From: Candidatus Saccharimonadota bacterium
Lineage (GTDB): Bacteria; Patescibacteriota; Patescibacteriia; 2-12-FULL-60-25
DNA: 32,000 nt
Direction of reading: 5' to 3'
Assembly (NCBI GenBank): GCA_963718585.1
Contig: OY970357.1
Coordinates: forward strand, 1-32,000
The position numbers and the translations under genes were made by a program. Positions 1 through 24,662 of this stretch are shown here, one piece after another. The notes below the pieces were generated by a model, which saw nothing but the letters and a program-made list of their open reading frames with translations, had not been told where the DNA came from and searched no databases. How positions within the stretch are numbered: position 1 is the stretch's first letter; each line of letters starts with the position of its first letter.

Positions 1-3000
1 ACCACCAACCTCACGGCCACCTCCGGCACCATCACCACCCTCAACAACACCACGTTGAACGGTGGGAATGCGACGTTCGACAACACGACGACCACCAACC
101 TCGCCGTCACCGGCCAGTCGAATCTCAACACGGTCTCATCCACGGCCATCTCGACGACCGACCTCACGGCCACCAACGGAACCTTCACGAACAGCACGTC
201 CACCAACTTCACCACCACGAACGCGACGGCGACCAATCTCTCGGTCACGAACCTGACCGTCACCGGCAACGCTCCAGCCTCCTTCGCGAACCTCACCTGG
301 ACCAATGCGACGGGGACCAACACCACCTCGACGAATCTCTTTGCCGTGAATGGGACGACGCTTGATCAATATGTCACGAACCTCACGGTGACCGGCACAT
401 CGAACCTCCAGAACACCACCTTTACCAATGCGACCGGCACGACCCTCGTCGTGACGAACGGGACCCTCACCAATGGGACCATCTCGAACCTCTCCTTCAC
501 CAATGGCACCTCCACGGGTTGGTTCGGCTTCGATACCGCCAGCGGCACCACCCTCAATGTCCTCACCTTGAACGCCTCCAACCTCACGACCCCGAATGCG
601 GTCATCACCGGCGGCACGATCGACAACACGGCGATCGGTCTCACGACTCCGTCCACGGCCATCTTCACGGACACGACCTCGACGAACAGCACCAGTACCA
701 ATCTGTATGCCACGAATGCGACCTTCCAGAACCTGACGGTCCTGGGTTCTGCCCCCTCCAACCTCACGAACCTCACCTGGACCAACGCGACGGGGACCAA
801 CACCACATCGACCAATCTCTTTGCCACGAACTTCACGGCCACCAACGGTGATCTCTCCGCCCTCACCTTCACCAATGGCACCTCCACGGACTGGTTCGGG
901 TTCGGGACTGCGAGCGGGACGAGCCTCTTCGCCTCCTCCGTCCAGGTGAACGGAACGAACGTGTGTCTGAAGGATGGCACCAATTGTCCGGGCGGGGTCT
1001 CGACCTCGACCTTCCAAGATGTGACTGATGTGGGATATGTCACGACGAATGCGATCCAGTTCAATGGAGGATCTTCCACTGCTGACTTCCTGCCCACCCA
1101 GGATGCCTCGTTCTCCCTCGGGAGTTCGACGGAACGCTGGAATGCCTTCCTCGCCTCGGTCACAGCCACGACCTTGGGGGTCACAGGCACGACCACGCTC
1201 CAGGACCTCGTCGTGAATGGATCCACGAGTCTTCAGAACGTCACCTTCCTGAACGCGACTGGCACCGGTCTCTTCGTCGACAACCTCAACGCCACGAATG
1301 CGCTTTTCACGAACGCGACCTCCACCAATTTCAACACCACCAACCTCACGGCCACCTCCGGCACCATCACCACCCTCAACAACACCACGTTGAACGGTGG
1401 GAATGCGACGTTCGACAACACGACGACCACCAACCTCGCCGTCACCGGCCAGTCGAATCTCAACACGGTCTCATCCACGGCCATCTCGACGACCGACCTC
1501 ACGGCCACCAACGGAACCTTCACGAACAGCACGTCCACCAACTTCACCACCACGAACGCGACGGCGACCAATCTCTCGGTCACGAACCTGACCGTCACCG
1601 GCAACGCTCCAGCCTCCTTCGCGAACCTCACCTGGACCAATGCGACGGGGACCAACACCACCTCGACGAATCTCTTTGCCGTGAATGGGACGACGCTTGA
1701 TCAATATGTCACGAACCTCACGGTGACCGGCACATCGAACCTCCAGAACACCACCTTTACCAATGCGACCGGCACGACCCTCGTCGTGACGAACGGGACC
1801 CTCACCAATGGGACCATCTCGAACCTCTCCTTCACCAATGGCACCTCCACGGGTTGGTTCGGCTTCGATACCGCCAGCGGCACCACCCTCAATGTCCTCA
1901 CCTTGAACGCCTCCAACCTCACGACCCCGAATGCGGTCATCACCGGCGGCACGATCGACAACACGGCGATCGGTCTCACGACTCCGTCCACGGCCATCTT
2001 CACGGACACGACCTCGACGAACAGCACCAGTACCAATCTGTATGCCACGAATGCGACCTTCCAGAACCTGACGGTCCTGGGTTCTGCCCCCTCCAACCTC
2101 ACGAACCTCACCTGGACCAACGCGACGGGGACCAACACCACATCGACCAATCTCTTTGCCACCAACTTCACGGCCACCAACGGTGATCTCTCCGCCCTCA
2201 CCTTCACCAATGGCACCTCCACGGACTGGTTCGGGTTCGGGACTGCGAGCGGGACGAGCCTCTTCGCCTCCTCCGTCCAGGTGAACGGAACGAACGTGTG
2301 TCTGAAGGATGGCACCAATTGTCCGGGCGGGGTCTCGACCTCGACCTTCCAAGATGTGACTGATGTGGGATATGTCACGACGAATGCGATCCAGTTCAAT
2401 GGAGGATCTTCCACTGCTGACTTCCTGCCCACCCAGGATGCCTCGTTCTCCCTCGGGAGTTCGACGGAACGCTGGAATGCCTTCCTCGCCTCGGTCACAG
2501 CCACGACCTTGGGGGTCACAGGCACGACCACGCTCCAGGACCTCGTCGTGAATGGATCCACGAGTCTTCAGAACGTCACCTTCCTGAACGCGACTGGCAC
2601 CGGTCTCTTCGTCGACAACCTCAACGCCACGAATGCGCTTTTCACGAACGCGACCTCCACCAATTTCAACACCACCAACCTCACGGCCACCTCCGGCACC
2701 ATCACCACCCTCAACAACACCACGTTGAACGGTGGGAATGCGACGTTCGACAACACGACGACCACCAACCTCGCCGTCACCGGCCAGTCGAATCTCAACA
2801 CGGTCTCATCCACGGCCATCTCGACGACCGACCTCACGGCCACCAACGGAACCTTCACGAACAGCACGTCCACCAACTTCACCACCACGAACGCGACGGC
2901 GACCAATCTCTCGGTCACGAACCTGACCGTCACCGGCAACGCTCCAGCCTCCTTCGCGAACCTCACCTGGACCAATGCGACGGGGACCAACACCACCTCG

Positions 3001-3637
3001 ACGAATCTCTTTGCCGTGAATGGGACGACGCTTGATCAATATGTCACGAACCTCACGGTGACCGGCACATCGAACCTCCAGAACACCACCTTTACCAATG
3101 CGACCGGCACGACCCTCGTCGTGACGAACGGGACCCTCACCAATGGGACCATCTCGAACCTCTCCTTCACCAATGGCACCTCCACGGGTTGGTTCGGCTT
3201 CGATACCGCCAGCGGCACCACCCTCAATGTCCTCACCTTGAACGCCTCCAACCTCACGACCCCGAATGCGGTCATCACCGGCGGCACGATCGACAACACG
3301 GCGATCGGTCTCACGACTCCGTCCACGGCCATCTTCACGGACACGACCTCGACGAACAGCACCAGTACCAATCTGTATGCCACGAATGCGACCTTCCAGA
3401 ACCTGACGGTCCTGGGTTCTGCCCCCTCCAACCTCACGAACCTCACCTGGACCAACGCGACGGGGACCAACACCACATCGACCAATCTCTTTGCCACCAA
3501 CTTCACGGCCACCAACGGTGATCTCTCCGCCCTCACCTTCACCAATGGCACCTCCACGGACTGGTTCGGGTTCGGGACCGCAAGTGGGACGAGCCTCTTC
3601 GCCTCCTCCGTCCAGGTGAACGGAACGAACGTGTGTC
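1..3637. repeat. In-frame 1335-bp tandem repeat array (445 aa per unit): two full copies plus a 967-bp third copy, starting mid-unit at the window edge
   Basis: Nt 1, 1336 and 2671 are in register. The ORF-track translations of all frames are identical between copies except for one base (g828 vs c2163). Copy 3 shows its first differences near 3579 and diverges after 3637. Confidence 0.95.
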
Positions 3638-6600
3638 TCGTCGATGGGACGAACTGTCCTGGGGCCCCTGCGACGACGGCAACGCTTCAGATCATCACGG
3701 ACAACGGGAACACGACGACGAACGCCATCCAGTTCGCCGGAGGGACGAGTACGGGGGACTTGGCCGTGACAGGGAACCAGATCACATTGGAGAACAACGA
3801 TGCACAGAATGCGGCTCTGCTGATCAAGGATGCGACCACCGCGGCAGATGGGGCTGGTCCGGCGATCATCCTTCAGAATGACGTTAGCCAGGATTATTTC
3901 ACGAAGTTCTCGAGCGGGGACTCCGGTCAACCAAATTCGCTTCTTATCCAACAGAATGGAGCGACCGGTAACCTGATCTTAGGTTCAGCGAGTGGAAGCA
4001 TCCTTTTCTGGGGCGGCCTCCCTGGCGGTTCACTGACGCAGCTCGGCTTCTTCGCCTCCTCCGGTGTGCTCACGATCGGTGCGGAATCCACCAGTCATGG
4101 CTTGAATGCGCAAGGCGACCTTATTGCGAATGCGGGAGAGTTCAACGGGAGTTTGTATGCGGACGGCTCGTTGACCGTCGCAGGATATAGCAGTCTCAAT
4201 GGATTGAATTGGACATCGGCATCCGGGACCAACACCACATCGACCAATCTCTTTGCCACGAACTTCACGGCCACCAACGGTGATCTCTCCGCCCTCACCT
4301 TCACCAATGGCACCTCCACGGACTGGTTCGGGTTCGGGACTGCGAGCGGGACGAGCCTCTTCGCCTCCTCCGTCCAGGTGAACGGAACGAACGTGTGTCT
4401 TGCGAATGGGACGAATTGTCCGGCAGGGTCAACGACCTCCTCTCTTGCCCAGGTCACGGCCGCAGGCGCCACCACCACGGACATCATCTACGCGCTCGGC
4501 GGCATCCAGACCCTGAACCTCACGGCGACCGGGTCGCTTGCGGTCAGCGGGACGTCGACCCTCTCCGGATCCCTGGACGTCACGGGCCAGACCACGCTCG
4601 CGGATGTCACGGGCCAGAGTGCGACCTTCACCAACCTCGCCGTCACCGGCCAGTCCAACCTCACCAACGTCTCTTCGACCAACCTCTCTGCATCGGGGAA
4701 CGCGACCATCGGAGGAACGCTCGCGGTCTCCGGCTCCTCCACCGTCTCCGGCGCCCTCAACGTCTCCGGTGACACTTCCCTCCAGAACGCCCTCTTCGTG
4801 GATGCGACCGGCACGAACCTCGCGCTCCTCGGTCTCCTCACGGCACCCTCCGCCTCGTTCACGGATCTCTTTGCCACGAACGCGACGACCACCAACAGTA
4901 CCTCCACCAATCTCTTTGCCACCAATGCCACGATCACGAACCTGAACGTCTCGAACTTCACGCCGACCGATATCACCTGGGTCCATGCGACCGGGACATA
5001 TACCACCACCACGGATCTCGGCGTCCTGGGATATATCGACACAGACCTCCTCCCGTCCCTTGATGCCGCCCTCTCCATCGGCTCTTCCGGCCTCCGGTGG
5101 AATGGGATCTTCGCGAACACCACCTCGACGAACGCCACCACCACGAACTTGTATGCCACGAACGGTTCCATCCTGAACGCCTCGACCACCAACCTCACGG
5201 CCACCTCCGGCACCATCACCACCCTCAACAACACCACCTTGAACGGAGGGAATGCCACGTTCGACAACACGACGACCACCAACCTCGCCGTGACGGGCCA
5301 GTCCAACCTCAACAACGTCTCTTCGACCAACCTCTCTGCCACGAACGGGACGATCACCGACCTCACGGCGAACTCTTCCACCATCACCACCCTCAACAAC
5401 ACCACCTTGAACGGAGGGAATGCCACGTTCGACAACACGACGACCACGAACGCGAACACCACCGACCTCACGGCCACCAATGCCACGGTCACGAACCTCA
5501 CGGTCTCGAGCCTCACCCTCACCGGGTCCACCCCATCTTCCTTCACGAACCTCATCTGGACCAATGCGACGGGGACCAACACCACCTCGACGAACCTCTT
5601 CGCTGTGAACGGGACGACGCTTGATCAATATGTCACGAACCTCACGGTGACCGGCACATCGAACCTCCAGAACGCCACCTTCACCAATGCGACCGGCACG
5701 ACCCTCGTCGTGACGAACGGGACCCTCACCAACGGCACCATCTCGAACCTCTCCTTCACCAATGGCACCTCCACCGGCTGGTTCGGGTTCGAGACCGCTT
5801 CCGGCACCACCCTCAATGTCCTCACGTTGAATGCCTCGAACCTCACGACCCCGAATGCGGTCATCACCGGAGGTACGATCGACAACACGGCCATCGGTCT
5901 CACGACCCCTTCGACCGCCATCTTCACGGACACCACCTCCACCAACAGCACCAGTACCAACCTGTATGCCACGAATGCGACCTTCCAGAACCTGACGGTC
6001 CTGGGTTCTGCCCCCTCCAACCTCACGAACCTCACCTGGACCAACGCGACGGGGACCAACACCACATCGACCAATCTCTTCGCCACGAACTTCACGGCCA
6101 CCAACGGTGATCTCTCCGCCCTCACCTTCACCAATGGCACCTCCACGGACTGGTTCGGGTTCGGGACTGCGAGCGGCACCAGCCTCCTTGCCTCCTCCGT
6201 CCAGGTGAACGGAACGAACGTCTGTCTCGCAGACGGGACGAACTGTCCCGGTTCCCCTGCGACGACGGCAACGCTTCAGATCATCACAGACAACGGGAAC
6301 ACGACGACGAACGCCATCCAGTTTGCCGGAGGGACATCGACCGGGAACTTCAATCCCGGCACGAACGATGCCTATGCGCTGGGGTCGAGTTCGACCCGGT
6401 GGTCCGACCTGTGGACCGCGAATCTCCATCTTGGGACCTCGACGTGGGATCTGACACAGGGCGCGAACGGCCGATTGTCCATTTCCAATCAAGGGAGTAG
6501 CTACTTTACGGTCCTCCAGAATGGGAACGTCGGCGTCGGGACCTCGACGCCGCTCACCGCGTTCCAGGTCGCGGGGACCTCGACACTGCAGGATCTTGTC

Positions 6601-8868
6601 CCGGCGTATGATCTGGCATACAGTCTTGGTTCCTACGCACAGCGATGGAACGAAGGGTGGTATGGTCAGATCAATGCGACCAGCGTGAACGCAACGAACG
6701 CGACGTTCAGTTCCATCACGATCTCTGGAACATCGCCGTCGGCGTTCGAGAACTTGAGCTGGACAAATGCGACGGGGACCAATACCACTTCCACGAATCT
6801 CGCGGTCCTCGGCGGTTTGACGCTCCCGGCCGACAGCGTCACAGACGCCATGGTCTCGGACACGATCAGTGTCGGATCGGGCGGGAACGTCTCGGCGGAC
6901 GCCGTGAATTCTGGGACGCTCGGGAACTCCAACGTCACGCTCGACTTGAGCGGGTTCGGGAGCGTTGCCGGTACATTGTCCGCGGATCAGATCACGTTTC
7001 CATCGACGAACACGTCGCAGGTCAATTCGGTCCAATATCTTTATAATCTTGCGATCTCACCGGCGATCGTATCCGGCGGCGACTACGTCCAGACTGCGAG
7101 CGGGACGTTCCAGATCAGCGCCGGTCGCGGGTATATCGGGACGGACCCGACGGATGTCACGGCCAACATCGACCTCGTGGATTGGGCGACGTCGACGATC
7201 AATTTGACCGGGAATGATTGGCTTTCCGTCGCGGTCTATTACAACAACGGTGATCCCATCATCGTATCGACGGCCACGGATACGTATGATAACTACGAAT
7301 ATCTCAAGATCGCGAAGGTTCGGAACAAGGGGAACGGCGAGATGGATTACCACGATGATCGCTTGCTCCGACCGCGTCCGATCCAGCGCCTCCAGCAGTT
7401 CTTCGAGGAGAACATCAAGCACACGGTCACGAACGGATGTGTCGCTTCCGTGACAGGGGCGTTGAATCTCGCGGTCAGTGCGTGCACGGAGTGGTATGGG
7501 ACAGATGAAAAGATTTTGTCAGCCATCGACACATCGAGCGGGGATTCGCTCAACGTATTCGTTCGGAACGGTTCGGGAGGGTATTACGATGAGGCGACCA
7601 CGACCGTCCTGGACACGACGCATTACGATGATAATAGCGGGACCCTGGCGTCTCTCGGATCCGGGGAATATGGGAACCTGTGGATCTATGAGGAGGAAGA
7701 CGGTCACGTCGATGTTCTCTTTGGCCATCAATCATTCACGGACCTCACCTCCGCGGAGGCGGAGGCACAGCCTGGCACGCTTCCGACCCAGTTGCAGGAT
7801 TTCGAGCACGGATTCCTGATCGCACGAATGACCTTTTTGAAAGGTGATACGTCAGCGCAGCATATCGCGGATCTGCGTCCGATCCTGGTCCGTCAGGACG
7901 TCGTTACCGGCGGTGGCATCACGGATCACAATGATCTCAACGGCCTCCAAGGCGGTGCTACGGGAGATTACTACCATGTCCGTCGTGACGGGTATGACTT
8001 CTCCGGCCCGCTCGAGTGGAGCGCGAACTTCGGCGGACTCTTCGACCTTCGGAACAATGCGCCGACGGACACGAAGATCACGATCGAGAACCTCGGCGGC
8101 GGGTCTGCAAGCCTCGACATCTCGAGCGGCGGCCTCGAGCTCGCGTCGACGACGCGCATCACGAATGCCGGGTACGGATATCTGACGGGGCTTGATGTCG
8201 GATATGGCGGGATCGTGAATGTCGGGGACATCAGCGGGGTGTCGAATCTGACGGTCACGGGAACGACGTCGCTTGCGGATCTGACCTTCACGAATGCGAC
8301 AGGTGTCAGCGCGACGACGACGAACTTCTACGCGACGAACGGCGCATTCCAGACCTTGACCGTGACGGGTGCCACTCCGTCGAACTTCGCGAATCTCGCA
8401 TGGACCAATGGGACCGGGATCAACACCACATCCACAAATCTCTTCACATCCAATCTCTCGTTCCTCAATGCCTCTGCCACGGCCCTGACGGTCCAAGGAT
8501 CTCCGGTCTGTCTTTTGGACGGAACCAACTGTCCGCCCGGTGCAGGCGTGCCGACATTGGATTATGTCGCCGCCGCAGGGTCGGCGACCACGCACACCCT
8601 CCAGCTCTATGGGGGCTTCCTCGCCGCGTCTTCGACCGTCACCTCATCGCTGAGCGTGGTCGGCGATCTCACGGTCACGGGGGACACATCGCTCCAACAT
8701 GCGCTGTTCGTCGATGCGACGGGAACAGACCTGACCCTCCTGGGGCTCTTCACGGCTCCGAACGCCCAGATCGATGCGCTCTTCGCGACCAATGCGACCA
8801 CGACCAACAGCACGTCGACGAATCTGTACGCGACGAATCTGTACGCGACAAACGGGGCGTTCGACTGA
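1..8868 (+). CDS. Giant Thr/Asn-rich repeat protein, fibre/adhesin-like with phage-tail-fibre-type motifs (5' partial, continues upstream of window)
   Basis: Frame 1 is open from nt 1. Nt 1-54 translate TTNLTATSGTITTLNNTTLN, identical to 1336-1389, so the Met at 55 is internal. More than 2950 codons run to TGA 8866-8868. Recurrent motifs: WTNATGTNTTSTNLFA, NGTNVCLxDGTNCP, D..xLGSSxxRWN, GNVGVGTSTP, HNDLNGLQGGATGDYYH. Confidence 0.85.
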   Translation, partial: TTNLTATSGTITTLNNTTLNGGNATFDNTTTTNLAVTGQSNLNTVSSTAISTTDLTATNGTFTNSTSTNFTTTNATATNLSVTNLTVTGNAPASFANLTWTNATGTNTTSTNLFAVNGTTLDQYVTNLTVTGTSNLQNTTFTNATGTTLVVTNGTLTNGTISNLSFTNGTSTGWFGFDTASGTTLNVLTLNASNLTTPNAVITGGTIDNTAIGLTTPSTAIFTDTTSTNSTSTNLYATNATFQNLTVLGSAPSNLTNLTWTNATGTNTTSTNLFATNFTATNGDLSALTFTNGTSTDWFGFGTASGTSLFASSVQVNGTNVCLKDGTNCPGGVSTSTFQDVTDVGYVTTNAIQFNGGSSTADFLPTQDASFSLGSSTERWNAFLASVTATTLGVTGTTTLQDLVVNGSTSLQNVTFLNATGTGLFVDNLNATNALFTNATSTNFNTTNLTATSGTITTLNNTTLNGGNATFDNTTTTNLAVTGQSNLNTVSSTAISTTDLTATNGTFTNSTSTNFTTTNATATNLSVTNLTVTGNAPASFANLTWTNATGTNTTSTNLFAVNGTTLDQYVTNLTVTGTSNLQNTTFTNATGTTLVVTNGTLTNGTISNLSFTNGTSTGWFGFDTASGTTLNVLTLNASNLTTPNAVITGGTIDNTAIGLTTPSTAIFTDTTSTNSTSTNLYATNATFQNLTVLGSAPSNLTNLTWTNATGTNTTSTNLFATNFTATNGDLSALTFTNGTSTDWFGFGTASGTSLFASSVQVNGTNVCLKDGTNCPGGVSTSTFQDVTDVGYVTTNAIQFNGGSSTADFLPTQDASFSLGSSTERWNAFLASVTATTLGVTGTTTLQDLVVNGSTSLQNVTFLNATGTGLFVDNLNATNALFTNATSTNFNTTNLTATSGTITTLNNTTLNGGNATFDNTTTTNLAVTGQSNLNTVSSTAISTTDLTATNGTFTNSTSTNFTTTNATATNLSVTNLTVTGNAPASFANLTWTNATGTNTTSTNLFAVNGTTLDQYVTNLTVTGTSNLQNTTFTNATGTTLVVTNGTLTNGTISNLSFTNGTSTGWFGFDTASGTTLNVLTLNASNLTTPNAVITGGTIDNTAIGLTTPSTAIFTDTTSTNSTSTNLYATNATFQNLTVLGSAPSNLTNLTWTNATGTNTTSTNLFATNFTATNGDLSALTFTNGTSTDWFGFGTASGTSLFASSVQVNGTNVCLVDGTNCPGAPATTATLQIITDNGNTTTNAIQFAGGTSTGDLAVTGNQITLENNDAQNAALLIKDATTAADGAGPAIILQNDVSQDYFTKFSSGDSGQPNSLLIQQNGATGNLILGSASGSILFWGGLPGGSLTQLGFFASSGVLTIGAESTSHGLNAQGDLIANAGEFNGSLYADGSLTVAGYSSLNGLNWTSASGTNTTSTNLFATNFTATNGDLSALTFTNGTSTDWFGFGTASGTSLFASSVQVNGTNVCLANGTNCPAGSTTSSLAQVTAAGATTTDIIYALGGIQTLNLTATGSLAVSGTSTLSGSLDVTGQTTLADVTGQSATFTNLAVTGQSNLTNVSSTNLSASGNATIGGTLAVSGSSTVSGALNVSGDTSLQNALFVDATGTNLALLGLLTAPSASFTDLFATNATTTNSTSTNLFATNATITNLNVSNFTPTDITWVHATGTYTTTTDLGVLGYIDTDLLPSLDAALSIGSSGLRWNGIFANTTSTNATTTNLYATNGSILNASTTNLTATSGTITTLNNTTLNGGNATFDNTTTTNLAVTGQSNLNNVSSTNLSATNGTITDLTANSSTITTLNNTTLNGGNATFDNTTTTNANTTDLTATNATVTNLTVSSLTLTGSTPSSFTNLIWTNATGTNTTSTNLFAVNGTTLDQYVTNLTVTGTSNLQNATFTNATGTTLVVTNGTLTNGTISNLSFTNGTSTGWFGFETASGTTLNVLTLNASNLTTPNAVITGGTIDNTAIGLTTPSTAIFTDTTSTNSTSTNLYATNATFQNLTVLGSAPSNLTNLTWTNATGTNTTSTNLFATNFTATNGDLSALTFTNGTSTDWFGFGTASGTSLLASSVQVNGTNVCLADGTNCPGSPATTATLQIITDNGNTTTNAIQFAGGTSTGNFNPGTNDAYALGSSSTRWSDLWTANLHLGTSTWDLTQGANGRLSISNQGSSYFTVLQNGNVGVGTSTPLTAFQVAGTSTLQDLVPAYDLAYSLGSYAQRWNEGWYGQINATSVNATNATFSSITISGTSPSAFENLSWTNATGTNTTSTNLAVLGGLTLPADSVTDAMVSDTISVGSGGNVSADAVNSGTLGNSNVTLDLSGFGSVAGTLSADQITFPSTNTSQVNSVQYLYNLAISPAIVSGGDYVQTASGTFQISAGRGYIGTDPTDVTANIDLVDWATSTINLTGNDWLSVAVYYNNGDPIIVSTATDTYDNYEYLKIAKVRNKGNGEMDYHDDRLLRPRPIQRLQQFFEENIKHTVTNGCVASVTGALNLAVSACTEWYGTDEKILSAIDTSSGDSLNVFVRNGSGGYYDEATTTVLDTTHYDDNSGTLASLGSGEYGNLWIYEEEDGHVDVLFGHQSFTDLTSAEAEAQPGTLPTQLQDFEHGFLIARMTFLKGDTSAQHIADLRPILVRQDVVTGGGITDHNDLNGLQGGATGDYYHVRRDGYDFSGPLEWSANFGGLFDLRNNAPTDTKITIENLGGGSASLDISSGGLELASTTRITNAGYGYLTGLDVGYGGIVNVGDISGVSNLTVTGTTSLADLTFTNATGVSATTTNFYATNGAFQTLTVTGATPSNFANLAWTNGTGINTTSTNLFTSNLSFLNASATALTVQGSPVCLLDGTNCPPGAGVPTLDYVAAAGSATTHTLQLYGGFLAASSTVTSSLSVVGDLTVTGDTSLQHALFVDATGTDLTLLGLFTAPNAQIDALFATNATTTNSTSTNLYATNLYATNGAFD
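4224..4400. repeat. Dispersed partial copy of the repeat unit (matches unit positions ~793-980)
   Basis: gggaccaacaccacatcgaccaatctctttgccacgaacttcacggccaccaacggtgatctctcc... is repeated almost verbatim and encodes SGTNTTSTNLFATNFTATNGDLSALTFTNGTSTDWFGFGTASGTSLFASSVQVNGTNVCL. Confidence 0.9.
5178..6245. repeat. Fourth, diverged copy of the 1335-bp unit (with an internally rearranged 5320-5540 segment)
   Basis: The protein segment TNLTATSGTITTLNNTTLNGGNATFDNTTTTNLAVTGQSNLN ... WTNATGTNTTSTNLFAVNGTTLDQYVTNLTVTG ... NGTNVCLADGTNCP is collinear with the unit, with scattered substitutions. Confidence 0.85.
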
Positions 8869-17899: not shown

Positions 17900-17914
17900 G
17901 TGCATGAAGAAGAT

Positions 17915-18091
17915 TTACTTCTTCCGCTTCGCGGGCTTGCGCTTCGCGGGCTTGCGCTTCGGAGCGGCCTTCCGTTTCGGAGCGGCCTTCCGCTTCGCGG
18001 GCTTGCGCTTCGGAGCGGCCTTCCGTTTCGGGGCGGCCTTCCGCTTCGCGGGCTTGCGCTTCGCAGCGGTCTTACGTTTTTTCATCGGCAT
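17915..18091 (-). CDS. Histone H1-like Lys/Ala/Pro-rich basic protein (58 aa)
   Basis: MPMKKRKTAAKRKPAKRKAAPKRKAAPKRKPAKRK... A strong SD (GGAGGGTGA) lies 9 nt upstream of ATG 18091. The longer ORF-track start at 18235 has no such signal. Confidence 0.7.
   Translation of the reverse strand: MPMKKRKTAAKRKPAKRKAAPKRKAAPKRKPAKRKAAPKRKAAPKRKPAKRKPAKRKK
17921..18075. repeat. Codon-level tandem repeats (15-18 nt subunits, 51-bp higher-order unit starting at 17987 and 18038)
   Basis: cttccgcttcgcgggcttgcgcttcggagcggccttccgtttcgg(a/g)gcggc is repeated and encodes PAKRK/AAPKRK units on the minus strand. Confidence 0.85.
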
Positions 18092-18184
18092 TGAAATCAC
18101 CCTCCTTTCTTTTTGTTCGTCCCGACAATTATCGAGATCGATGTCGCGACCTGCGTGCGACGCAAGGTCATCGAACATGACATG

Positions 18185-18210
18185 AGTATAACATACTTTT
18201 TGCGTGTCAA
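18185..18210 (-). promoter_or_regulatory. Candidate promoter for the histone-like gene (extended -10 TGTTATACT, TTGACA upstream with a short 14-nt spacer)
   Basis: The minus strand reads TTGACAcgcaaaaagtaTGtTATACT. Sequence pattern only. Confidence 0.3.
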
Positions 18211-18271
18211 GGATATTTTTTGTGCGTCTCAGCACATGTTGAACGTTCGTTTGGTCTGTACGGCGACACCC

Positions 18272-18300
18272 TTTACAAAACGGGTAAGGTGTGCTAGTCT
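18272..18300 (+). promoter_or_regulatory. Candidate promoter for the RRM gene (TTTACA-17-TAGTCT with TGc extension)
   Basis: tttacaaaacgggtaaggtgtgctagtct. It would give a ~125-nt 5' UTR. Sequence pattern only. Confidence 0.3.
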
Positions 18301-18430
18301 ATCTCCGGAGTGTACGTGCGAAGGTCCGTCGGTACGTCGCGTTCAACGCGGCTGACTCCGTTCTACGGAGTGGTCGAAGACAGGGTCCGTGCGCAAACGA
18401 CTTCCAGAATAATTCATTGTCAAAGTACGC

Positions 18431-18697
18431 ATGCCCAGTAAGCTCTTCGTCGGAGGCATCCCTTTCCGCATGACGGAAGATGAACTCCGCGACGCGTTTT
18501 CGCAGGCGGGTGAGGTGACCTCGGTTTACATTCCGATGGATCGCCAGACCGGCCGGCCGCGTGGTTTCGCTTTCGTCGAAATGACGGACGACGCCCAGGC
18601 CGAAGCCGCGATCGCCATGTACGACGGGAAAGATCTCGGTGGCCGCACGGTCGCCGTGAACAAGGCCCGTCCCATGGAGGACCGCCCCCAGCGCTAA
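18431..18697 (+). CDS. RNA-binding protein with a single RRM domain
   Basis: RNP-2 LFVGGI and RNP-1 RGFAFVEM motifs in an 88-aa protein. Confidence 0.9.
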   Translation: MPSKLFVGGIPFRMTEDELRDAFSQAGEVTSVYIPMDRQTGRPRGFAFVEMTDDAQAEAAIAMYDGKDLGGRTVAVNKARPMEDRPQR

Positions 18698-18707
18698 TAA
18701 GCGCAAT

Positions 18708-18738
18708 AAAAACATCCCCCTTTTGGGGGATGTTTTTT
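18708..18738. terminator. Bidirectional rho-independent terminator
   Basis: aaaaacatccccc tttt gggggatgttttt forms a 13-bp stem, flanked by an A-run and a T-run, between convergent genes. Confidence 0.85.
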
Positions 18739-18749
18739 ATAGAGATGAC

Positions 18750-18917
18750 TTACTGACCAAGGCAGGTGTCGCATTTGGCCGCTGAAGCCTCGACAACATT
18801 CCCGCACGTGCATGTGCAGGTCCCTTCCTTGCACTCCATGGAGGCATGGCACTTACTGCAATGGGGCTGGCCTTCTTGCAACGCCGCGCCGCACTGGGCA
18901 CATTTCATTTCTTCCAT
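18750..18917 (-). CDS. Small Cys-rich protein (55 aa, 11 Cys), putative metal-binding or zinc-ribbon-like
   Basis: MEEMKCAQCGAALQEGQPHCSKCHASMECKEGTCTCTCGNVVEASAAKCDTCLGQ. Start chosen at 18917, 11 nt after the stop of the upstream gene; the ORF-track start at 19016 overlaps that gene. Confidence 0.55.
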   Translation of the reverse strand: MEEMKCAQCGAALQEGQPHCSKCHASMECKEGTCTCTCGNVVEASAAKCDTCLGQ

Positions 18918-18928
18918 ATAGAGAAAGA

Positions 18929-19837
18929 TTAAGAATGAGGTAACGACAGGATATCGCCGGTGCTCTGTACAAGCAAACCATCTTTGACAAGCCGGGTGCA
19001 CATGGCGCGTATCCATTCGAGATCCGAGATCGGGTCGTAGTTCTCATCCACTGCGTGTCCGATCTGAGAGATGGTCCTCTTTCCCCGTGTGCGGATCAGT
19101 GCGAGGATCCGTCCGCGGTAGATCCGGTCCGGGGAGCTTTTTCCTTCATGGATGCGTTCGGTCTTGCTCGTCATTTTCCTTTTTCCGCGGTTCATGTTGA
19201 TGAGACCGTCTCCGAACTTTTTTCGCGCTTGGCAATCTGCGCGAAGCGGACACTGTGCGCAATCGGGCGTGCGTGGCGTGCATACCGCATTGGCCAGATC
19301 CATGAACGCCTGCGGCACGTCCCAATGGCGACGTCGGATCGGTGTGATCCGTTCGAGCGCTCGACCGATCCGTGGGTCGTCATTCGGTGTCGGATCCGGG
19401 ATCCCTCCTGCAAGCCGTCCGACGACGCGGCGGACATTCGTGTCAATGACGATCGCGCGTTGATGATCCACGAATTCGGCGAGGGCGCTCGCCATATACG
19501 GACCGACGCCTTTTAATCGGCGCCATGCTTCTACCCCCTTTGGGACGTCGCGTTTGATGACGTCGCGTGCCGCTTCCCGTGCATACAACGCGCGGCGGTT
19601 ATACCCGAGGCCGGCCCACGCATGGATCAGATCGCGGGTCGAAGCGTTGGCGAGCGATCGCCAGGACGGGAATCTGCGGAGCCAGGCGCGAAAGATCGGC
19701 AGGACGCGGTCCACCTGCGTCTGCTGGAGCATGAGTTCGGAGATGAAGATCCGATACGGGTTCCGCGTGCGACGCCAGGGGAGCATTCGTCCATGGGCGT
19801 CGTACCAGGCCAGGAGGCGCCGCGTCACGGCCTCCAT
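18929..19837 (-). CDS. mutY: HhH-GPD base-excision glycosylase, MutY/A-G-specific adenine glycosylase-like, with a 4Fe-4S cluster loop
   Basis: LPWRRTRNPYRIFISELMLQQTQV, GLGYNRRA, VDTNVRRV, and the Cys motif CTPRTPDCAQCPLRADC (C-x6-C-x2-C-x5-C). Confidence 0.8.
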   Translation of the reverse strand: MEAVTRRLLAWYDAHGRMLPWRRTRNPYRIFISELMLQQTQVDRVLPIFRAWLRRFPSWRSLANASTRDLIHAWAGLGYNRRALYAREAARDVIKRDVPKGVEAWRRLKGVGPYMASALAEFVDHQRAIVIDTNVRRVVGRLAGGIPDPTPNDDPRIGRALERITPIRRRHWDVPQAFMDLANAVCTPRTPDCAQCPLRADCQARKKFGDGLINMNRGKRKMTSKTERIHEGKSSPDRIYRGRILALIRTRGKRTISQIGHAVDENYDPISDLEWIRAMCTRLVKDGLLVQSTGDILSLPHS

Positions 19838-21140: not shown

Positions 21141-22634
21141 TCACTCATCTTGCAGGAGCCGTCTTGCCTCTGCAAGCGCCTCATCATAGGTGCGGATGTC
21201 TCCCGCATCCCGCATCGTCTCGATCCGTTCGATGATCTCTCCGATCCGAGGGCCAGCCGGCAGACCGAGGGCGATGAGGTCGCGTCCTTGGAGCAATGTC
21301 CGCGTGGGTTCTTCCGCGAGGTCCAGATCATGTACGGTCTGGGCAAAACGTTCTCCGGCGACGTACGGTCCCTCTTCCGCGCCAGGGAAAGCGCGACCGC
21401 GATGGTCGGCTTCTGCGACCGCGATGAGCACGCGCCACGAGACCGGGGCGATCCGTTTGAGGAGTCGCCGGATCGCGTTCTCATACTGCGCATCCGTCAG
21501 CTCTTTGCGTTCCAGGGATCGATACAGCATGGACGGCTTCAGGTGCTCGGTCGCCGCGACAACGGCTGCGTGCGTTGCACGTTCGCCGAATGTCCATCTT
21601 CCGAGCAGATCTTCCGTCAGCTCTTTCCCCGCCTCTTCGTGACCGTGGGATCGGATACGGCCACCCATGCCTTTTGTCGTCTTGGGTTTGCCGAGGTCGT
21701 GACACAAAGCACCGAGCATGATCCGAAGAGGCTCGCCGGATCCGAGATCCGCGCGTGATCTGCTGATGGACGCTGCTGCATTCAGGACCATGAGGGTGTG
21801 TGTCCAGACGTCACCTTCAGGATGCCATTCAGGCTCCTGCGGCGTACCGATGAGGGCGTGGAGTTCGGGGAGATCTCGTTCCACGATCCCGAGATCTTTG
21901 AGAAGCGTGAGGCCGAGGGAGGGTTGTTCTGCCTTCAGGAACAATTTACGGAGTTCCTCCGTGATCCGTTCGGCCGGAAGTTCATCGAGCGCACCCTGTG
22001 CGACCATTTTTTTCATGAGCGTGAACGTCTTCGCTTCCACGCCGAGTGTGAAGCGTGCGGCGAACTGGACCGCGCGATAGACCCGAAGCGGGTCTTCGAC
22101 GAACGTCTTTGGATCGACGGCGCGCAAGAGCTTCACGTCGAGGTCAGCGACCCCACCGTAGGGGTCGGTGATCTCTCCGGTGGCGCCGTCTGCGTAGATC
22201 GCGTTGATCGTGAAGTCCCGTCGTCGCGCTGCCTCCACGACCGTCATGCCGGGGTCACCTTCGACCGTGAAGCCGCGATGCCCGGGGGCGGTCTTGGATT
22301 CACGCCGGGGGATGGAGACATCGATCTCTGCATCATCTGCCAGGGGAATGAGGAGAATGCCAAAGGCACGACCGACCGTGTTGACCCGTTCGGGAAAGAG
22401 ATCGGTGAGCACGCTTTCAAGTCGTTCCGGCGCGACGCCGAAGACCTCGAGATCCAGGTCCGCGGAGCGGCGCTTCAATAGCGCGTCGCGGACGCAGCCG
22501 CCCACCAAAAAGACCCGCGGTTCATTGGTGAACCGATGATCGGCAGGGATCCGGTTGATCGCATCTGTGATGCGTCTCAATCCTTCCTCCAGGCGTGGGT
22601 CAAACAGACGGAAATCGATCCGTTCAGCGGACAT
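21141..22634 (-). CDS. cca: CCA-adding enzyme / tRNA nucleotidyltransferase with an HD domain
   Basis: N-terminal FLVGGCVRDALLKRRSADLDLEV (polymerase beta-type head), RDFTINA, and a C-terminal HD motif CHDLGKP. Confidence 0.85.
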   Translation of the reverse strand: MSAERIDFRLFDPRLEEGLRRITDAINRIPADHRFTNEPRVFLVGGCVRDALLKRRSADLDLEVFGVAPERLESVLTDLFPERVNTVGRAFGILLIPLADDAEIDVSIPRRESKTAPGHRGFTVEGDPGMTVVEAARRRDFTINAIYADGATGEITDPYGGVADLDVKLLRAVDPKTFVEDPLRVYRAVQFAARFTLGVEAKTFTLMKKMVAQGALDELPAERITEELRKLFLKAEQPSLGLTLLKDLGIVERDLPELHALIGTPQEPEWHPEGDVWTHTLMVLNAAASISRSRADLGSGEPLRIMLGALCHDLGKPKTTKGMGGRIRSHGHEEAGKELTEDLLGRWTFGERATHAAVVAATEHLKPSMLYRSLERKELTDAQYENAIRRLLKRIAPVSWRVLIAVAEADHRGRAFPGAEEGPYVAGERFAQTVHDLDLAEEPTRTLLQGRDLIALGLPAGPRIGEIIERIETMRDAGDIRTYDEALAEARRLLQDE

Positions 22635-22685
22635 GGGGACAGTGTATCAAGGCCGCGGACCCCCGGCCATGTATGAAAAACCCCG

Positions 22686-22714
22686 ACATCGAGAGACGTC
22701 GGGGAGTGGATCAG
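22686..22714 (-). terminator. Rho-independent terminator downstream of tRNA-Cys
   Basis: The minus strand reads ccccgac gtctctcgat gtcgggg ttttt. Confidence 0.7.
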
Positions 22715-22760
22715 CCGGTATTTTTCGCGCATCCGCACGAACGGGACCGGTGGCCCGTTG

Positions 22761-22831
22761 AGACCAGAGCAGGACTCGAACCTGCGATGGCGGTGTTGCA
22801 GACCGCTGCCTTGCCGCTTGGCGATCTGGTC
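22761..22831 (-). tRNA. tRNA-Cys (GCA), CCA not encoded
   Basis: Hand-folded cloverleaf: acceptor GACCAGA/TCTGGTC, anticodon arm GCGGT-CTGCAAC-ACCGC, T arm GCAGG-TTCGAGT-CCTGC, discriminator U. Confidence 0.9.
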
Positions 22832-23253
22832 ACCTCTCTGTCGGACCGGTGCGTGCTTTTGCGCGAACCGGTCCGGCCGAGAGCGAGGCTCTGCTTCCTC
22901 TTGGCTCACCACTTCGATGGCAGAGGCAGGTGACGCCTCTTGTGTTGGTTGGTGAATGATCAGGGTCTCACGCCAGCCTCCGTTCTTTCCGTGTGGATCT
23001 TTGTTTGGGGAACGAGATGTTCGTCATGAACGTCTCGTCTCTCACGAGCGGCGAAATTCCACCGCGCCAGAGAGAGAGGCGTTCCAAGATCGGTGTTGGA
23101 AAGGGGATGGTCCCTCCCCTCAGTCGGTCCGACAAGCTGGATCGACTCAAGGCAGAGGCCATGCGTTCATCACTCTTTCCTCTGGTGACGAACCCCTAAA
23201 AGGTTCTGTTTCGTTGCCGATCCGTCTGACAAGCTTGGACGTTTTTGGCAACG
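22832..23253 (-). ncRNA. Candidate structured ncRNA or unusually long leader co-transcribed with tRNA-Cys (family not recognised)
   Basis: About 420 nt with no convincing ORF, lying between a near-consensus promoter and the tRNA. It has many stable hairpins (for example cgaga-t-gttc-gtcat-gaac-g-tctcg, agggga-gggacca-tcccct, ggaccggt...accggtcc) and repeated AGAGGA/AAGAGG purine motifs. Confidence 0.35.
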
Positions 23254-23259
23254 ATGTTC

Positions 23260-23288
23260 GGTATAACATAGGCTGAAAAAAGTGTCAA
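23260..23288 (-). promoter_or_regulatory. Sigma70-type promoter (TTGACA-17-TATACC with TGt extension) reading toward tRNA-Cys
   Basis: The minus strand reads TTGACActtttttcagcctaTGtTATACC. The -35 is at 23283-23288 and the -10 at 23260-23265. Confidence 0.5.
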
Positions 23289-23408
23289 GTATTGACTATA
23301 CAAACTTATGGAAGTGGAGAAAAGCTCCTCTTTTTTGCATGTATTCTTAAATAAATGATGGCTGACGGAAGGCTCGCGAACGCAAAGTGCGCCATGTCAA
23401 TCATAGGC

Positions 23409-23437
23409 TTGACATATTCCGAAAAAGCTGGTACCTT
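23409..23437 (+). promoter_or_regulatory. Sigma70-type promoter (TTGACA-17-TACCTT with TGg extension)
   Basis: ttgacatattccgaaaaagctggtacctt. The -35 is at 23409-23414 and the -10 at 23432-23437. Confidence 0.45.
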
Positions 23438-23443
23438 CCAGAT

Positions 23444-23914
23444 GCAATCTCGCGCTTGTGTGAGAGGCCGGACAGCCGGTGGGCTGCTCGCGTTCTTTCG
23501 ACCGCCAAGGTCCCCCAGCTGTCCGCAACCCCTGTCAAAAAAACAGATGAGGTAAGGACATGCAGTATCGGGAAACGGCCCCCTGCACACATTCGAGTTC
23601 GCGCTTGATCCACGACGAGGATATCTCGTTCAGGATCTGCCGCGACTCTGTCCGCTGCGAACGCAGCGGCTGTGATCACTCCGGACAGCGATGTTCGTGA
23701 GTCAGGGGAGCGGTTCAATGGGAACGCGCCAAATGACGAAAAACAGCAGCGCGACCTCTTGTGCAGCTACAGCCACCACCGATCCCGCAAGCCCCCTCGG
23801 GCGACCGAAGGAGAGCTAAGATGGGCGGATATAGCGGATTCTAGTCCAGCAACACGTGCGTCAGCACGGTTCGTGCCGGTCCTCGGGAGATCTTCTCTCA
23901 GGACCGGTTTTTTT
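23444..23914 (+). ncRNA. Candidate ~470-nt ncRNA bounded by a promoter and a strong terminator (family not recognised)
   Basis: No protein-like ORF. Extended hairpins are present (gagttcgcg-cttgatcc-acgacgagg...ctcgt-tcaggatc-tgc-cgcgactc at ~23598-23652; ctgtccg[ccgctgcgaacgcagcgg]...cggacag). The 3' end is a canonical intrinsic terminator. Confidence 0.4.
23876..23914 (+). terminator. Rho-independent terminator (T-run overlaps the stop codon of the convergent TrmB gene)
   Basis: ccggtcct cgggagatcttctctc aggaccgg ttttttt. Confidence 0.8.
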
Positions 23915-24662
23915 ATGCCTTCCGGTACTTTTCCGCGCCCTGATAGGCGAGCTTGAAGAGCTCTTTCATGCTCTGCGCGAGGATCTCGCTCTCAATGAGG
24001 ACGGAGATGTTCTTTCCCTGGAATGTCGTGAGGGCGACCCGATTCGCATACACCGTCACGTTCCCGAAGAAGGCGAATTCAGCCATGGGGAGCTGGATCA
24101 ACTTCGCGTGTTCACGTGATTTGAGATGTTTGCTCGAAAGGACGAGTGCTTCATGGACGGTCTTTTGCTTGTCGAGCTGCGTCGCGTAACTCATCAGTTC
24201 GTCGCGGGCGAATGTCGAGAACATCGCATCTTCGTTGTTCAGCTCATAGATGATGTCCGGATCCGCCTTCAGGATGTCGTCATGGATCGCTTTCAATCCC
24301 TCTTTCCCTTCAAAAAGACGGACGACCGGACGGTCGCCGCGCTGGACGAGCTTCAATTCGTTGATCGCGCTTTGCACCTCGCGGAGTGTGTTCTCCATCT
24401 CTTTCATCTTGGTATGCATGAAGGAGACGAGCCGATCCGGGGATTCAGCGGCGTACAGGGTCTTCTTCCCCTTTTCCACTGAGCTCATGAGCCCGTGTTT
24501 TGCGAGGGACTCGATGACCGCATACGTGGTCACGCGTGAGACCTTGGCTTTTTTGGCGATGTCTTGCACGGACGAAGGTCCGAGCTCCAGCGATAACAGG
24601 TAGATCTTGGCCTCACTGTCCGTGAATCCGAGGGATTTGAGAAGGGTATTCCACTGCATCAT
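23913..24662 (-). CDS. TrmB-family transcriptional regulator (N-terminal winged HTH)
   Basis: LGFTDSEAKIYLLSLELGPSSVQDIAKKAKVSRVTTYAVIESLAKHGLM is typical of the TrmB HTH, followed by a TrmB-like C-terminal domain. Confidence 0.8.
   Translation of the reverse strand: MMQWNTLLKSLGFTDSEAKIYLLSLELGPSSVQDIAKKAKVSRVTTYAVIESLAKHGLMSSVEKGKKTLYAAESPDRLVSFMHTKMKEMENTLREVQSAINELKLVQRGDRPVVRLFEGKEGLKAIHDDILKADPDIIYELNNEDAMFSTFARDELMSYATQLDKQKTVHEALVLSSKHLKSREHAKLIQLPMAEFAFFGNVTVYANRVALTTFQGKNISVLIESEILAQSMKELFKLAYQGAEKYRKA

Follow-up and report, generated by a model that had tools for sequence, protein, structure and literature searches.

A candidate translation-gated RNA family next to TrmB-like genes in Uhrbacteria-type Patescibacteria

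The locus and its transcription unit

We analysed a stretch of 32,000 nucleotides (nt) of a patescibacterial genome (contig OY970357.1 of assembly GCA_963718585.1, positions 1 to 32,000; "the window" throughout) and, within it, a transcription unit on the forward (+) strand at 23409-23914. Judged from its sequence, this unit is a genuine and separate RNA gene of ~470 nt that belongs to a lineage-specific family of Uhrbacteria-type Patescibacteria. The family is previously undescribed and has no Rfam model, and literature searches for non-coding RNAs (ncRNAs) of the Candidate Phyla Radiation (CPR) or for TrmB-linked small open reading frames (ORFs) returned no description of the unit. It lies in an island of 1278 nt (22635-23912) that holds tRNA-Cys as its sole gene, so that the non-coding island described in an initial annotation of the window is borne out. 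The island is flanked on one side by a gene for a CCA-adding enzyme (21141-22634, - strand), the best relatives of which (at most 61% identity) belong to Candidatus Uhrbacteria and other patescibacterial metagenome-assembled genomes. The convergent partner of the unit is a gene for a TrmB-family, TrmBL2-like DNA-binding protein (23913-24662, - strand; 249 amino acids, aa; Pfam TrmB, 5e-14), for which an AlphaFold model (pLDDT 91) gave a full-length match to TrmBL2, a chromatin protein of archaea (E = 1e-12). Further neighbours encode a PfkB kinase and a 2-hydroxyacid dehydrogenase.

Transcription is predicted to start near G23444 from an extended -10 promoter of the sigma-70 type (23409-23437, + strand), which comprises TTGACA (23409-23414), a 17-nt spacer ending in TGg, and TACCTT (23432-23437). 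A generic promoter scanner reported no site here and rejected it since the -10 box matches at three of six positions; we make the call despite this rejection because the extended -10 pattern is conserved. The pattern TTGACA-N14-TGN-TANNNT has a single match in the 32-kb window (0.01 expected), and 11 of 13 related loci have this layout, 17-nt spacer included, in the corresponding position, which agrees with the TG-extended promoter that had been proposed from the letters alone. A palindrome, TGTCAA-N8-TTGACA (23395-23414, + strand), overlaps the -35 box and, as read from the sequence, is a possible operator; it is found likewise in two related loci (L098 and L100) and is degenerate in the other lineages.

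The unit ends in an intrinsic terminator (23876-23914, + strand) made of a two-tier GC-rich hairpin (23876-23907) and a run of seven T (23908-23914), the latter extending into the convergent gene's stop codon (23913-23915). The terminator had been recognised in the initial annotation with a stem of 8 + 4 pairs; in the minimum free energy (MFE) structure it has 9 + 6 = 15 pairs. A terminator scanner missed it because its loop limit of 8 nt is exceeded here. All lineages examined have a long terminator hairpin rich in GC, and the lower stem CCGGUCC/GGACCGG is recognisable in L098, L099, L103, L107 and L082. As a separate observation, the apex of the terminator (window 23884-23899 and its homologues) often pairs a purine tract resembling a Shine-Dalgarno sequence (SD), such as GGGAGA, GGGAGGG or GAGGGGAAA, with a CU-rich strand, and an alternative partner for the CUCUC at 23895-23899 could be the GAGAG in the downstream SD of the unit (SD2, see below).

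No known RNA family accounts for the unit. Rfam 15 at gathering score gave no match in the window or in 14 related loci, the families covered including RNase P RNA, tmRNA, 6S, SRP, OLE, GOLLD, HEARO, ROOL, raiA, riboswitches, T-box and others. At E <= 10 the sole match in the unit was Ms_IGR-8, with 16.4 bits against a cut-off of 44 bits (E = 1.5). ARAGORN found only tRNA-Cys and tRNA-Ala in the window and no tmRNA; the resume codon of a tmRNA is moreover unlike the ultra-short ORF (mini-ORF) described below, which has an SD and an AUG. The earlier remark that the conserved motifs of RNase P RNA and tmRNA could not be found, in spite of a fitting size, is thus borne out: the unit is neither of the two.

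Related units beside TrmB-like genes

Searches of the island with blastn and nhmmer against 80 related genome loci returned nothing but an identical contig (L001), and homology became visible only via synteny with TrmB. Starting from TrmB-like orthologues of 55-76% identity, we compared 14 informative loci from genomes, metagenomes and Logan assemblies (related loci carry L-numbers). In 13 of the 14, an RNA unit of the same layout lies directly downstream of the TrmB-like gene on the opposite strand (L002, L014, L082, L098, L099, L100/L101, L102, L103, L104, L106, L107 and L109-L111); L108 is without the unit, and L105 is truncated. The predicted transcripts measure ~125 nt in L002, ~250-350 nt in L014, L082, L102 and L109, and ~470-630 nt in the others. 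The gene on the far side of the unit varies by locus (CCA enzyme, small ORFs, others), so that the unit goes together with the TrmB-like gene and is not tied to its other neighbour. In all loci the next gene is on the opposite strand and convergent. The unit is hence not the orphan that it had first been taken for, since a TrmB-family gene always converges on the members of its family. Synteny is retained at the locus, which appears to be vertically inherited; an origin from a mobile element was considered and rejected, there being no similar phage or plasmid record.

In public assemblies, the homologous RNA units are overlain by gene calls for "hypothetical proteins" of 58-175 aa without Pfam domains (L098 2456-2983, L099 3812-4291, L100 927-1229, L104 2334-2744, L106 3473-3760 and L109 3363-3539). 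These are probably mis-annotations, and the practical consequence is that gene callers put spurious proteins of this size over RNA in related contigs.

RNA structure

The window unit folds with an MFE of -195.7 kcal/mol, compared with -171.8 +/- 6.4 for shuffled sequences (z = -3.76). A consensus computed with RNAalifold from six lineages defines a 5' domain of ~90 nt in the family, which begins with GCAWUC, continues with helix P1 and closes with helix P2 (cGGACAGC...GCUGUCCG) around a CU-rich (G)UUCUUUCC. In this domain 90% of the cells are paired and 8 of 20 pairs have changed on both sides, against 34-46% paired in slid controls, and several of its G-U pairs are compatible with the + strand only. 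In the window, P1 is a hairpin straight after the 5' GCAAUC (23444-23468, + strand; eight pairs, 92% of cells paired, three with compensatory changes). P2 spans 23469-23525 (+ strand), with 23469-23476 pairing to 23518-23525 (eight pairs, 98% paired, three with compensatory changes), and contains, besides an inner hairpin, a CU-rich motif that resembles an anti-SD, GUUCUUUC (23492-23499). A covariance model of the domain (R1) recovers the training units as well as L103 (E = 2e-10) and L082 (E = 3e-4), and elsewhere in 0.4 Mb it found nothing save a weak match (E = 0.056) in the 5' untranslated region of the TrmB-convergent gene of L085. The closely related trio L099/L103/L104 yields a consensus fold with 12 pairs that show compensatory changes, and such changes occur within the "ORF"; in one hairpin, for example, CCCGAC/GUCGGG is replaced by UCCGGC/GCCGGA. 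Comparative alignment, which the initial annotation had proposed as a check, thus supports a conserved structured RNA with covarying helices.

Downstream of this domain, a core of ~250 nt between the first start codon (AUG1) and SD2 is strongly folded and has changed too quickly to be alignable between lineages (48% column identity). The long hairpins noted from the letters are confirmed in part: the MFE structure contains two of them (23608-23638 and 23653-23670), while the nested ctgtccg/cggacag arms exist but remain outside it. The same holds for the long-range pairing that had been suspected between the 5' region and the region near 23790. A duplex of 23493-23506 with 23800-23813 is the best for that 5' segment (-24.3 kcal/mol, first of 122 windows), but the MFE structure uses another partner. 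Among nine lineages, SD2 is the best or near-best partner of the CU motif in five (the window, L082, L106, L104 and L107) and not in the four others, and we rejected a universal pairing of the CU motif with SD2, as it is top-ranked in these five only. The region of the upstream SD (SD1) has its best partner 25-85 nt upstream of the second start codon (AUG2, that of the mini-ORF) in seven of nine lineages; in the trio L099/L103/L104 this partner is the conserved block CACCUCGUGUCGAGCA. SD2 itself is mostly paired in the predicted ensembles, with an unpaired probability of at most 0.26 in 9 of 11 units.

Reading frames of the unit

The longest ORFs on the + strand of the unit have 46, 42, 66, 73 and 94 aa, and none resembles a protein, as had been stated initially. 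GC content is flat over codon positions 1, 2 and 3 (0.59/0.60/0.61), whereas the real genes of the window have a GC2 of 0.33-0.58 and a GC3 of 0.64-0.81. ORF1, which runs from the ATG at 23560 to the TGA at 23700 (+ strand; 46 codons) and is neither conserved nor protein-like, has a codon-usage log-odds score of -0.22, compared with +0.54 +/- 0.23 for in-frame gene chunks and -0.69 +/- 0.30 for out-of-frame ones. Pfam and NCBIfam gave no match to the ORFs of the island, and the read-through translation had no relative among 5.8 billion proteins, so that the suggested check for a degraded protein gene, made in this way, revealed nothing. ORF1 is preceded by SD1 (GAGGUAAGGA, 23549-23558, + strand), and the pair SD1-AUG1, which aligns in six lineages, lies ~115 nt from the predicted 5' end.

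The frame of AUG1 is nevertheless unusually open. It is stop-free down to the mini-ORF in seven of nine units, where ~2 stops per frame would be expected. Three stops were observed in it against ~17 expected; the two other frames have 28 against ~35, and the reverse frames are as expected. AUG2 is in the AUG1 frame in seven of nine units, and in L102 in addition to these. Units whose AUG1 frame is interrupted have another ORF that terminates directly at the mini-ORF: the window has a second relay ORF (23705-23819, + strand) with its own SD (GGGGAG, 23705-23710), an ATGGG at 23718, 33 codons, and a TAA (23817-23819) that ends 1 nt before the ATG of the mini-ORF at 23821; in L109, the TGA of ORF1 stands 2 nt before that ATG. 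A recoding of UGA to join the ORFs of the window was considered and rejected: TGA ends the CCA-enzyme gene, the NUDIX gene and other genes, and is therefore an ordinary stop here, so that the frame interruptions of the window are real.

These frames could belong to an ordinary messenger RNA (mRNA) for a small, fast-evolving, disordered and basic protein (an ORF1 product of ~30-120 aa with an MG... tail), the window copy of which would be truncated or pseudogenised by two in-frame TGA codons. Such a protein would explain why the ORF1 frame is open to the stop of the mini-ORF in L099, L100, L106, L107, L082 and L102 and why ORF1 is in frame with AUG2 in most units; L106 and L107 also show a mild GC3 excess, and distant loci hold bona fide proteins at this position (membrane proteins in L085/L086, an SGFGGK-repeat protein in L083 and secreted proteins in L087-L090). 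However, no similarity is detectable between the ORF1 products of different lineages, though the adjacent TrmB proteins are 60-76% identical; the trio L099/L103/L104 differs by indels of 1 nt and 8 nt within the "ORF", and these close relatives keep long ORFs across the frameshifts; L002 has no ORF1 at all. Together with a GC2 of ~0.6, the flat periodicity and the codon score unlike those of real genes, the lack of any homologue among the proteins searched, the compensatory pair changes inside the "ORF", an SD2 that is conserved as nucleotides in varying frames, and the normal use of TGA in this genome, this makes a protein-coding mRNA an unlikely explanation, if one to be taken seriously. The amino-acid sequences of these ORFs are probably irrelevant, but their translation is probably not.

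The conserved mini-ORF

The most constant element of the family is found at the 3' end. In the window, SD2 (GAAGGAGAG, 23807-23815, + strand) stands 5 nt before the mini-ORF ATG GGC GGA TAT AGC GGA TTC TAG (23821-23844, + strand), which encodes MGGYSGF. The same arrangement, that is SD2, a spacer of 5-12 nt, AUG GGN, three to five more codons and a stop, is present in all 13 lineages (13/13), the mini-ORF having 5-7 codons. The peptides are MGGYSGF (window), MGNNGV, MGCNGC, MGSYCGG, MGYSG, MGGSVS, MGGSIK, MGSGGL, MGTSGF, MGSSF, MGGLG, MGMTGG and MGLSDN, the last one from L014, where the SD is weak. Over all loci, GGAG-N4-10-ATGGG followed by an ORF of at most eight codons is found in every TrmB-adjacent case, compared with 5 of 24 other cases. 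The GGAG of SD2 occurs in varying codon phases and at varying spacings between lineages, and is therefore conserved as an SD and not as codons. The codons of the window mini-ORF are common ones (13-27 per 1000 in the genes of the window), for which reason we rejected a sponge for rare tRNAs. The initial annotation had called the unit a large ncRNA; this stands insofar as it is a novel structured RNA without a usual protein gene, and falls short insofar as it carries conserved SD and AUG signals and an invariable mini-ORF.

A purely non-coding RNA (a base-pairing small RNA, sRNA, or a protein sponge), in which SD and AUG would be structural motifs unused by ribosomes, agrees with the strong fold, the covarying helices, the non-coding-like ORFs and the mostly paired SD2. 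But a stop five to seven codons after ATGGG in each lineage, against the 5 of 24 of the background, and the depletion of stops in the AUG1 frame (3 against ~17) are properties of reading frames and have no explanation in RNA structure. A sponge of the CsrA/RsmA type was likewise rejected, since GGA and SD-like motifs are not enriched (GGA/AGGA counts within ~2 standard deviations of dinucleotide shuffles in most family members). We consider it highly improbable that the RNA is never translated.

Two further readings assign a role to the translation of the mini-ORF. In the first, a Gly-rich oligopeptide (GGYSGF in the window after removal of Met) would be translated directly and serve as a signal or ligand, e.g., for the neighbouring regulator, in the manner of a peptide-regulator cassette. 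The invariant Met-Gly start fits this idea, a Gly at position 2 permitting the excision of Met, as do the length of 5-7 residues and the hypervariability beside a regulator gene in each case, in which pherotype-like cassettes are similar; the composition (G, S, C and one hydrophobic residue) also echoes the SGFGGK and GGGIGGC repeats of the L083, L085 and L086 proteins. Against it, scans of the window proteins revealed no export signal, transporter or processing gene nearby, and the regulator has the fold of TrmBL2, a DNA binder of the chromatin type without a known peptide pocket; we therefore discarded the neighbouring regulator as a hint of peptide binding, its fold being uninformative in this respect. 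The mini-ORFs of distant relatives have just three to four codons (MGT, MGLE), and the peptide is not under purifying selection, L099 having MGCNGC where its close relative L103 has MGYSG. A peptide signal of this kind appears very unlikely to us.

In the second reading, the unit would be an attenuator of the leader-peptide type, in which the position of the ribosome on ORF1 or the mini-ORF sets the terminator, and read-through would produce an antisense RNA that lowers the expression of the convergent trmB. In all lineages an SD-led short ORF indeed stands just upstream of an intrinsic terminator; in L002 and L082 only 7-8 nt separate the stop codon from the hairpin, the terminator is directly adjacent to the stop of trmB, and trmB is without a U-tract terminator of its own on the - strand. 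Gly is invariant at codon 2, and each mini-ORF has one to three Gly codons. The stop and the T-run, however, are anywhere between 32 and 136 nt apart, we found no conserved alternative structure that could serve as an antiterminator (none is contained in the MFE or centroid structure of the window), no co-directional gene follows, and the Gly codons do not form runs as in classical leaders. The variable peptide and the variable distance weigh against a simple peptide function as well as a simple attenuator, and we regard the attenuator as distinctly doubtful.

Proposed function

We therefore turn to translation itself. The simplest reading is that ribosome transit and an ultra-short final ORF, as opposed to the encoded sequence, are under selection. 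On this basis we propose that the unit is a translation-gated regulatory RNA, the output of which would be the translation of the mini-ORF, and judge the chances of this proposal to be about even. A self-closing, SD-masking RNA is suggested because SD2 is predicted to be paired and because of the CU:SD2 and SD1 long-range partners. At equilibrium, both SDs would be base-paired via closing interactions between the 5' and 3' parts; in the window, the CU motif (23492-23506) would pair with the SD2 region (23800-23813). Ribosomes loaded at AUG1 would read through and unfold the core, probably soon after transcription, and translation from AUG1 would deliver or couple ribosomes to the mini-ORF. The relay in the window would comprise three ORFs of 46, 33 and 7 codons, the stop of the second lying immediately before the AUG of the mini-ORF. 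The output would be translation of a minigene beside a stabilising hairpin, and its effect might consist of a Gly-rich peptide of 5-7 residues, of ribosome or tRNA engagement, or of altered termination with read-through into antisense trmB.

Several points weigh against a translation-gated RNA. The peptides of the mini-ORF are unconserved beyond Met-Gly, and the distance between stop and T-run varies as stated above. ORF1 stops after 46 codons in the window and after 45 in L098, so that the "relay" is itself an interpretation, and L002 dispenses with ORF1. The opposite strand folds about as well as the unit (z = -3.52), and fold energy therefore cannot assign the strand; the core cannot be aligned between lineages, which leaves the global structure unproven. 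The long-range pairings that mask the SDs differ among lineages, and in a GC-rich folded RNA most bases are predicted to be paired anyway. Finally, the comparison covers ~13 lineages, some of them closely related (L099/L103/L104), and promoter, SDs and starts are predictions at the level of sequence.

Comparison with known systems

The closest known anatomy is that of CreT, the RNA toxin of the CreTA modules of Haloarcula/Halobacterium and Pseudomonas aeruginosa. CreT toxins have been shown to require an SD, a mini-ORF only a few codons long and a GC-rich hairpin (PMC8501985; bioRxiv 10.64898/2026.06.02.729485). Like CreT, the unit is a small RNA with its own promoter in which a strong SD, an AUG and a mini-ORF (~4-6 codons in CreT; in the window six codons after the ATG, then TAG) are placed right upstream of a stable GC-rich stem-loop (23876-23907, 15 pairs), and in both the sequence is poorly conserved and the architecture is conserved. 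Two other hallmarks of CreT are lacking: the mini-ORFs have neither two consecutive rare codons (AGA, AUA) nor Pro-Pro, and there is no CRISPR-Cas locus with a CreA guide near the unit (no Cas domain in the 13 window proteins scanned, and no CRISPR-like repeat pair with repeat-spacer spacing in the island). The unit is also far longer (~470 nt) and has, in addition, an upstream frame and a 5' domain that covaries.

The unit might accordingly be a mini-ORF RNA toxin of the CreT kind that jams translation, with the TrmBL2-like protein as its transcriptional guard, i.e., an analogue of CreTA that is independent of CRISPR. Apart from the strong SD, the AUG mini-ORF of 4-7 codons and the conserved GC-rich hairpin, this is consistent with the minimal member L002 (~125 nt), which consists essentially of SD, mini-ORF and hairpin, with the DNA-binding protein gene that always adjoins, and with the palindrome over the -35 box of the window. 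Conversely, the mini-ORF is made of common codons, the window has neither cas genes nor CRISPR-like repeats, the syntenic and apparently vertical inheritance without any phage or plasmid similarity does not speak for a mobile module, and the long upstream domain with ORF1 has no counterpart in CreT; on balance a toxin is quite unlikely. A broader and more speculative version, to which we assign a low but somewhat higher probability, envisages a two-gene cassette new to the CPR in which the TrmBL2-like protein guards a minigene RNA, the translation of the minigene either arrests translation (as in a CRISPR-independent CreTA analogue) or yields a directly encoded Gly-rich peptide signal of 4-6 residues, and the 5' domain and the stop-free frame act as a gate.

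Other known systems resemble the unit to a lesser degree. Dual-function sRNAs, such as RNAIII/hld of Staphylococcus aureus, SgrS/SgrT and SR1/SR1P, are also structured RNAs of several hundred nt with their own promoter and terminator and a small ORF led by a ribosome-binding site (in the unit, a predicted one), and just as RNAIII is divergent from agr P2, the unit is divergent from its neighbouring unit. In contrast to these sRNAs, the ORF of the unit has only 5-7 codons and an unconserved sequence, and a long non-conserved open frame is present in addition. The mRNAs of hok-type (type I toxin-antitoxin) systems are ~400 nt long and compactly folded, pairing of their 5' and 3' parts masks the SDs, and the upstream overlapping mok frame is needed for translation of the downstream one. 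The unit shares with them a predicted long-range masking of SDs and the upstream frame, but it encodes no hydrophobic toxin peptide, no internal promoter for an antisense RNA was found, and there is no similarity in sequence or in Rfam. The resemblance to dual-function sRNAs and to hok-type mRNAs is one of general design only. Leader-peptide attenuators (trpL, hisL and pheL, among others) have an SD-led short ORF followed by an intrinsic terminator, as does the unit, the translation of which is, by analogy with them, probably coupled to RNA folding; it differs from them in the convergent next gene, in the absence of a regulatory codon run and of a detectable antiterminator, and in its far greater length.

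To our knowledge, almost nothing has been reported on regulatory RNAs of the Patescibacteria (CPR). With its covariation, its open frame devoid of protein conservation and its invariant ultra-short MG ORF beside a hairpin, the family would be among the first CPR-specific RNA families, and a natural case in which selection appears to act on translation as such and not on its protein product. The minimal member of ~125 nt offers a portable test object for asking if CreT-type minigene RNAs occur in places other than CRISPR loci, and the family also lends itself to the question of how an RNA and the TrmBL2-like protein encoded beside it are connected.

Distant TrmB loci

TrmB loci that are more distantly related have genuine protein genes in the convergent unit. 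L085 (~1020-1700, - strand) and L086 (~3260-3950, - strand), with a TrmB identity of 41-42%, hold homologous membrane proteins of ~130 aa that end in GGGIGGC and GGGVGC repeats, and L083 (~5550-6300, - strand; TrmB identity 46%) has a membrane protein with six SGFGGK repeats at its C-terminus; the Gly-rich C-terminal repeats of these proteins recall the mini-ORF peptides in composition. In L087-L096 (TrmB identity 36-38%; marine metagenomes), a secreted helical protein of ~105 aa is found (L087 ~860-1500, - strand; L088; L090-L093; L096). After its stop codon come an anti-SD/SD hairpin, CCUCCUUUC...GAAAGGAGG, and then a separate mini-ORF of three to five codons (MGDGM, MGT, MGLE), an arrangement that looks like an explicit design for translational coupling. 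Because the distant loci encode real proteins at this position, we propose that the Uhrbacteria-type RNA may derive from the mRNA of a small protein, its body having lost the protein constraint and its leader, translation and Gly-rich tail ORF having been kept.

Other features of the window

The remainder of the island is occupied by the divergent unit (22681-23288, - strand), which comprises a promoter with TTGACA at 23288-23283, a leader of ~420 nt, tRNA-Cys (22831-22760) and a terminator (22704-22681). Its promoter is of the same class as that of the + strand unit. The leader has no Rfam match; it contains two AGCUUGUC boxes (plus-strand GACAAGCT, 23131-23138 and 23228-23235) and a block of ~35 nt (plus-strand 23125-23160) that is kept in L098 and L100/L101. 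In relatives it precedes varying small protein genes (31-212 aa), and it is absent in L099 and L104. One of the proteins encoded in divergent units forms a family of 87-101 aa with the C-terminal motif DCGNPDCP[IA]HG and no Pfam match (L100 1727-1981, L101 1700-1963 and L107 4432-4737, all + strand).

A conserved TATACAAA box stands 6 nt upstream of the -35 box of the - strand unit (plus-strand TGTCAAGT-N6-TATACAAA; 23260-23300 in the window) in ~10 loci, namely the window, L002, L014, L082, L098, L100, L102, L106, L107 and L109; it could be an UP element or the site of a regulator. A segment of 26 nt of the + unit RNA, CCACCACCGAUCCCGCAAGCCCCCUC (window 23773-23798), is 73% like a segment of the - unit RNA, CCAACACCGAUCUUGGAACGCCUCUC (window 23074-23099), a likeness that may be due to chance.

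Elsewhere in the window, a giant ORF (55-8868, 2937 aa) includes a 1335-nt tandem repeat in three copies that are 100% identical (1-4005), followed by diverged copies. A second gap without long ORFs (17900-19020) does have coding content, comprising a Lys/Ala-rich, histone-H1-like repeat ORF (17915-18235, - strand), a gene for an RRM-type RNA-binding protein (18431-18697, + strand) and a Cys-rich ORF of 88 aa (18750-19016, - strand).

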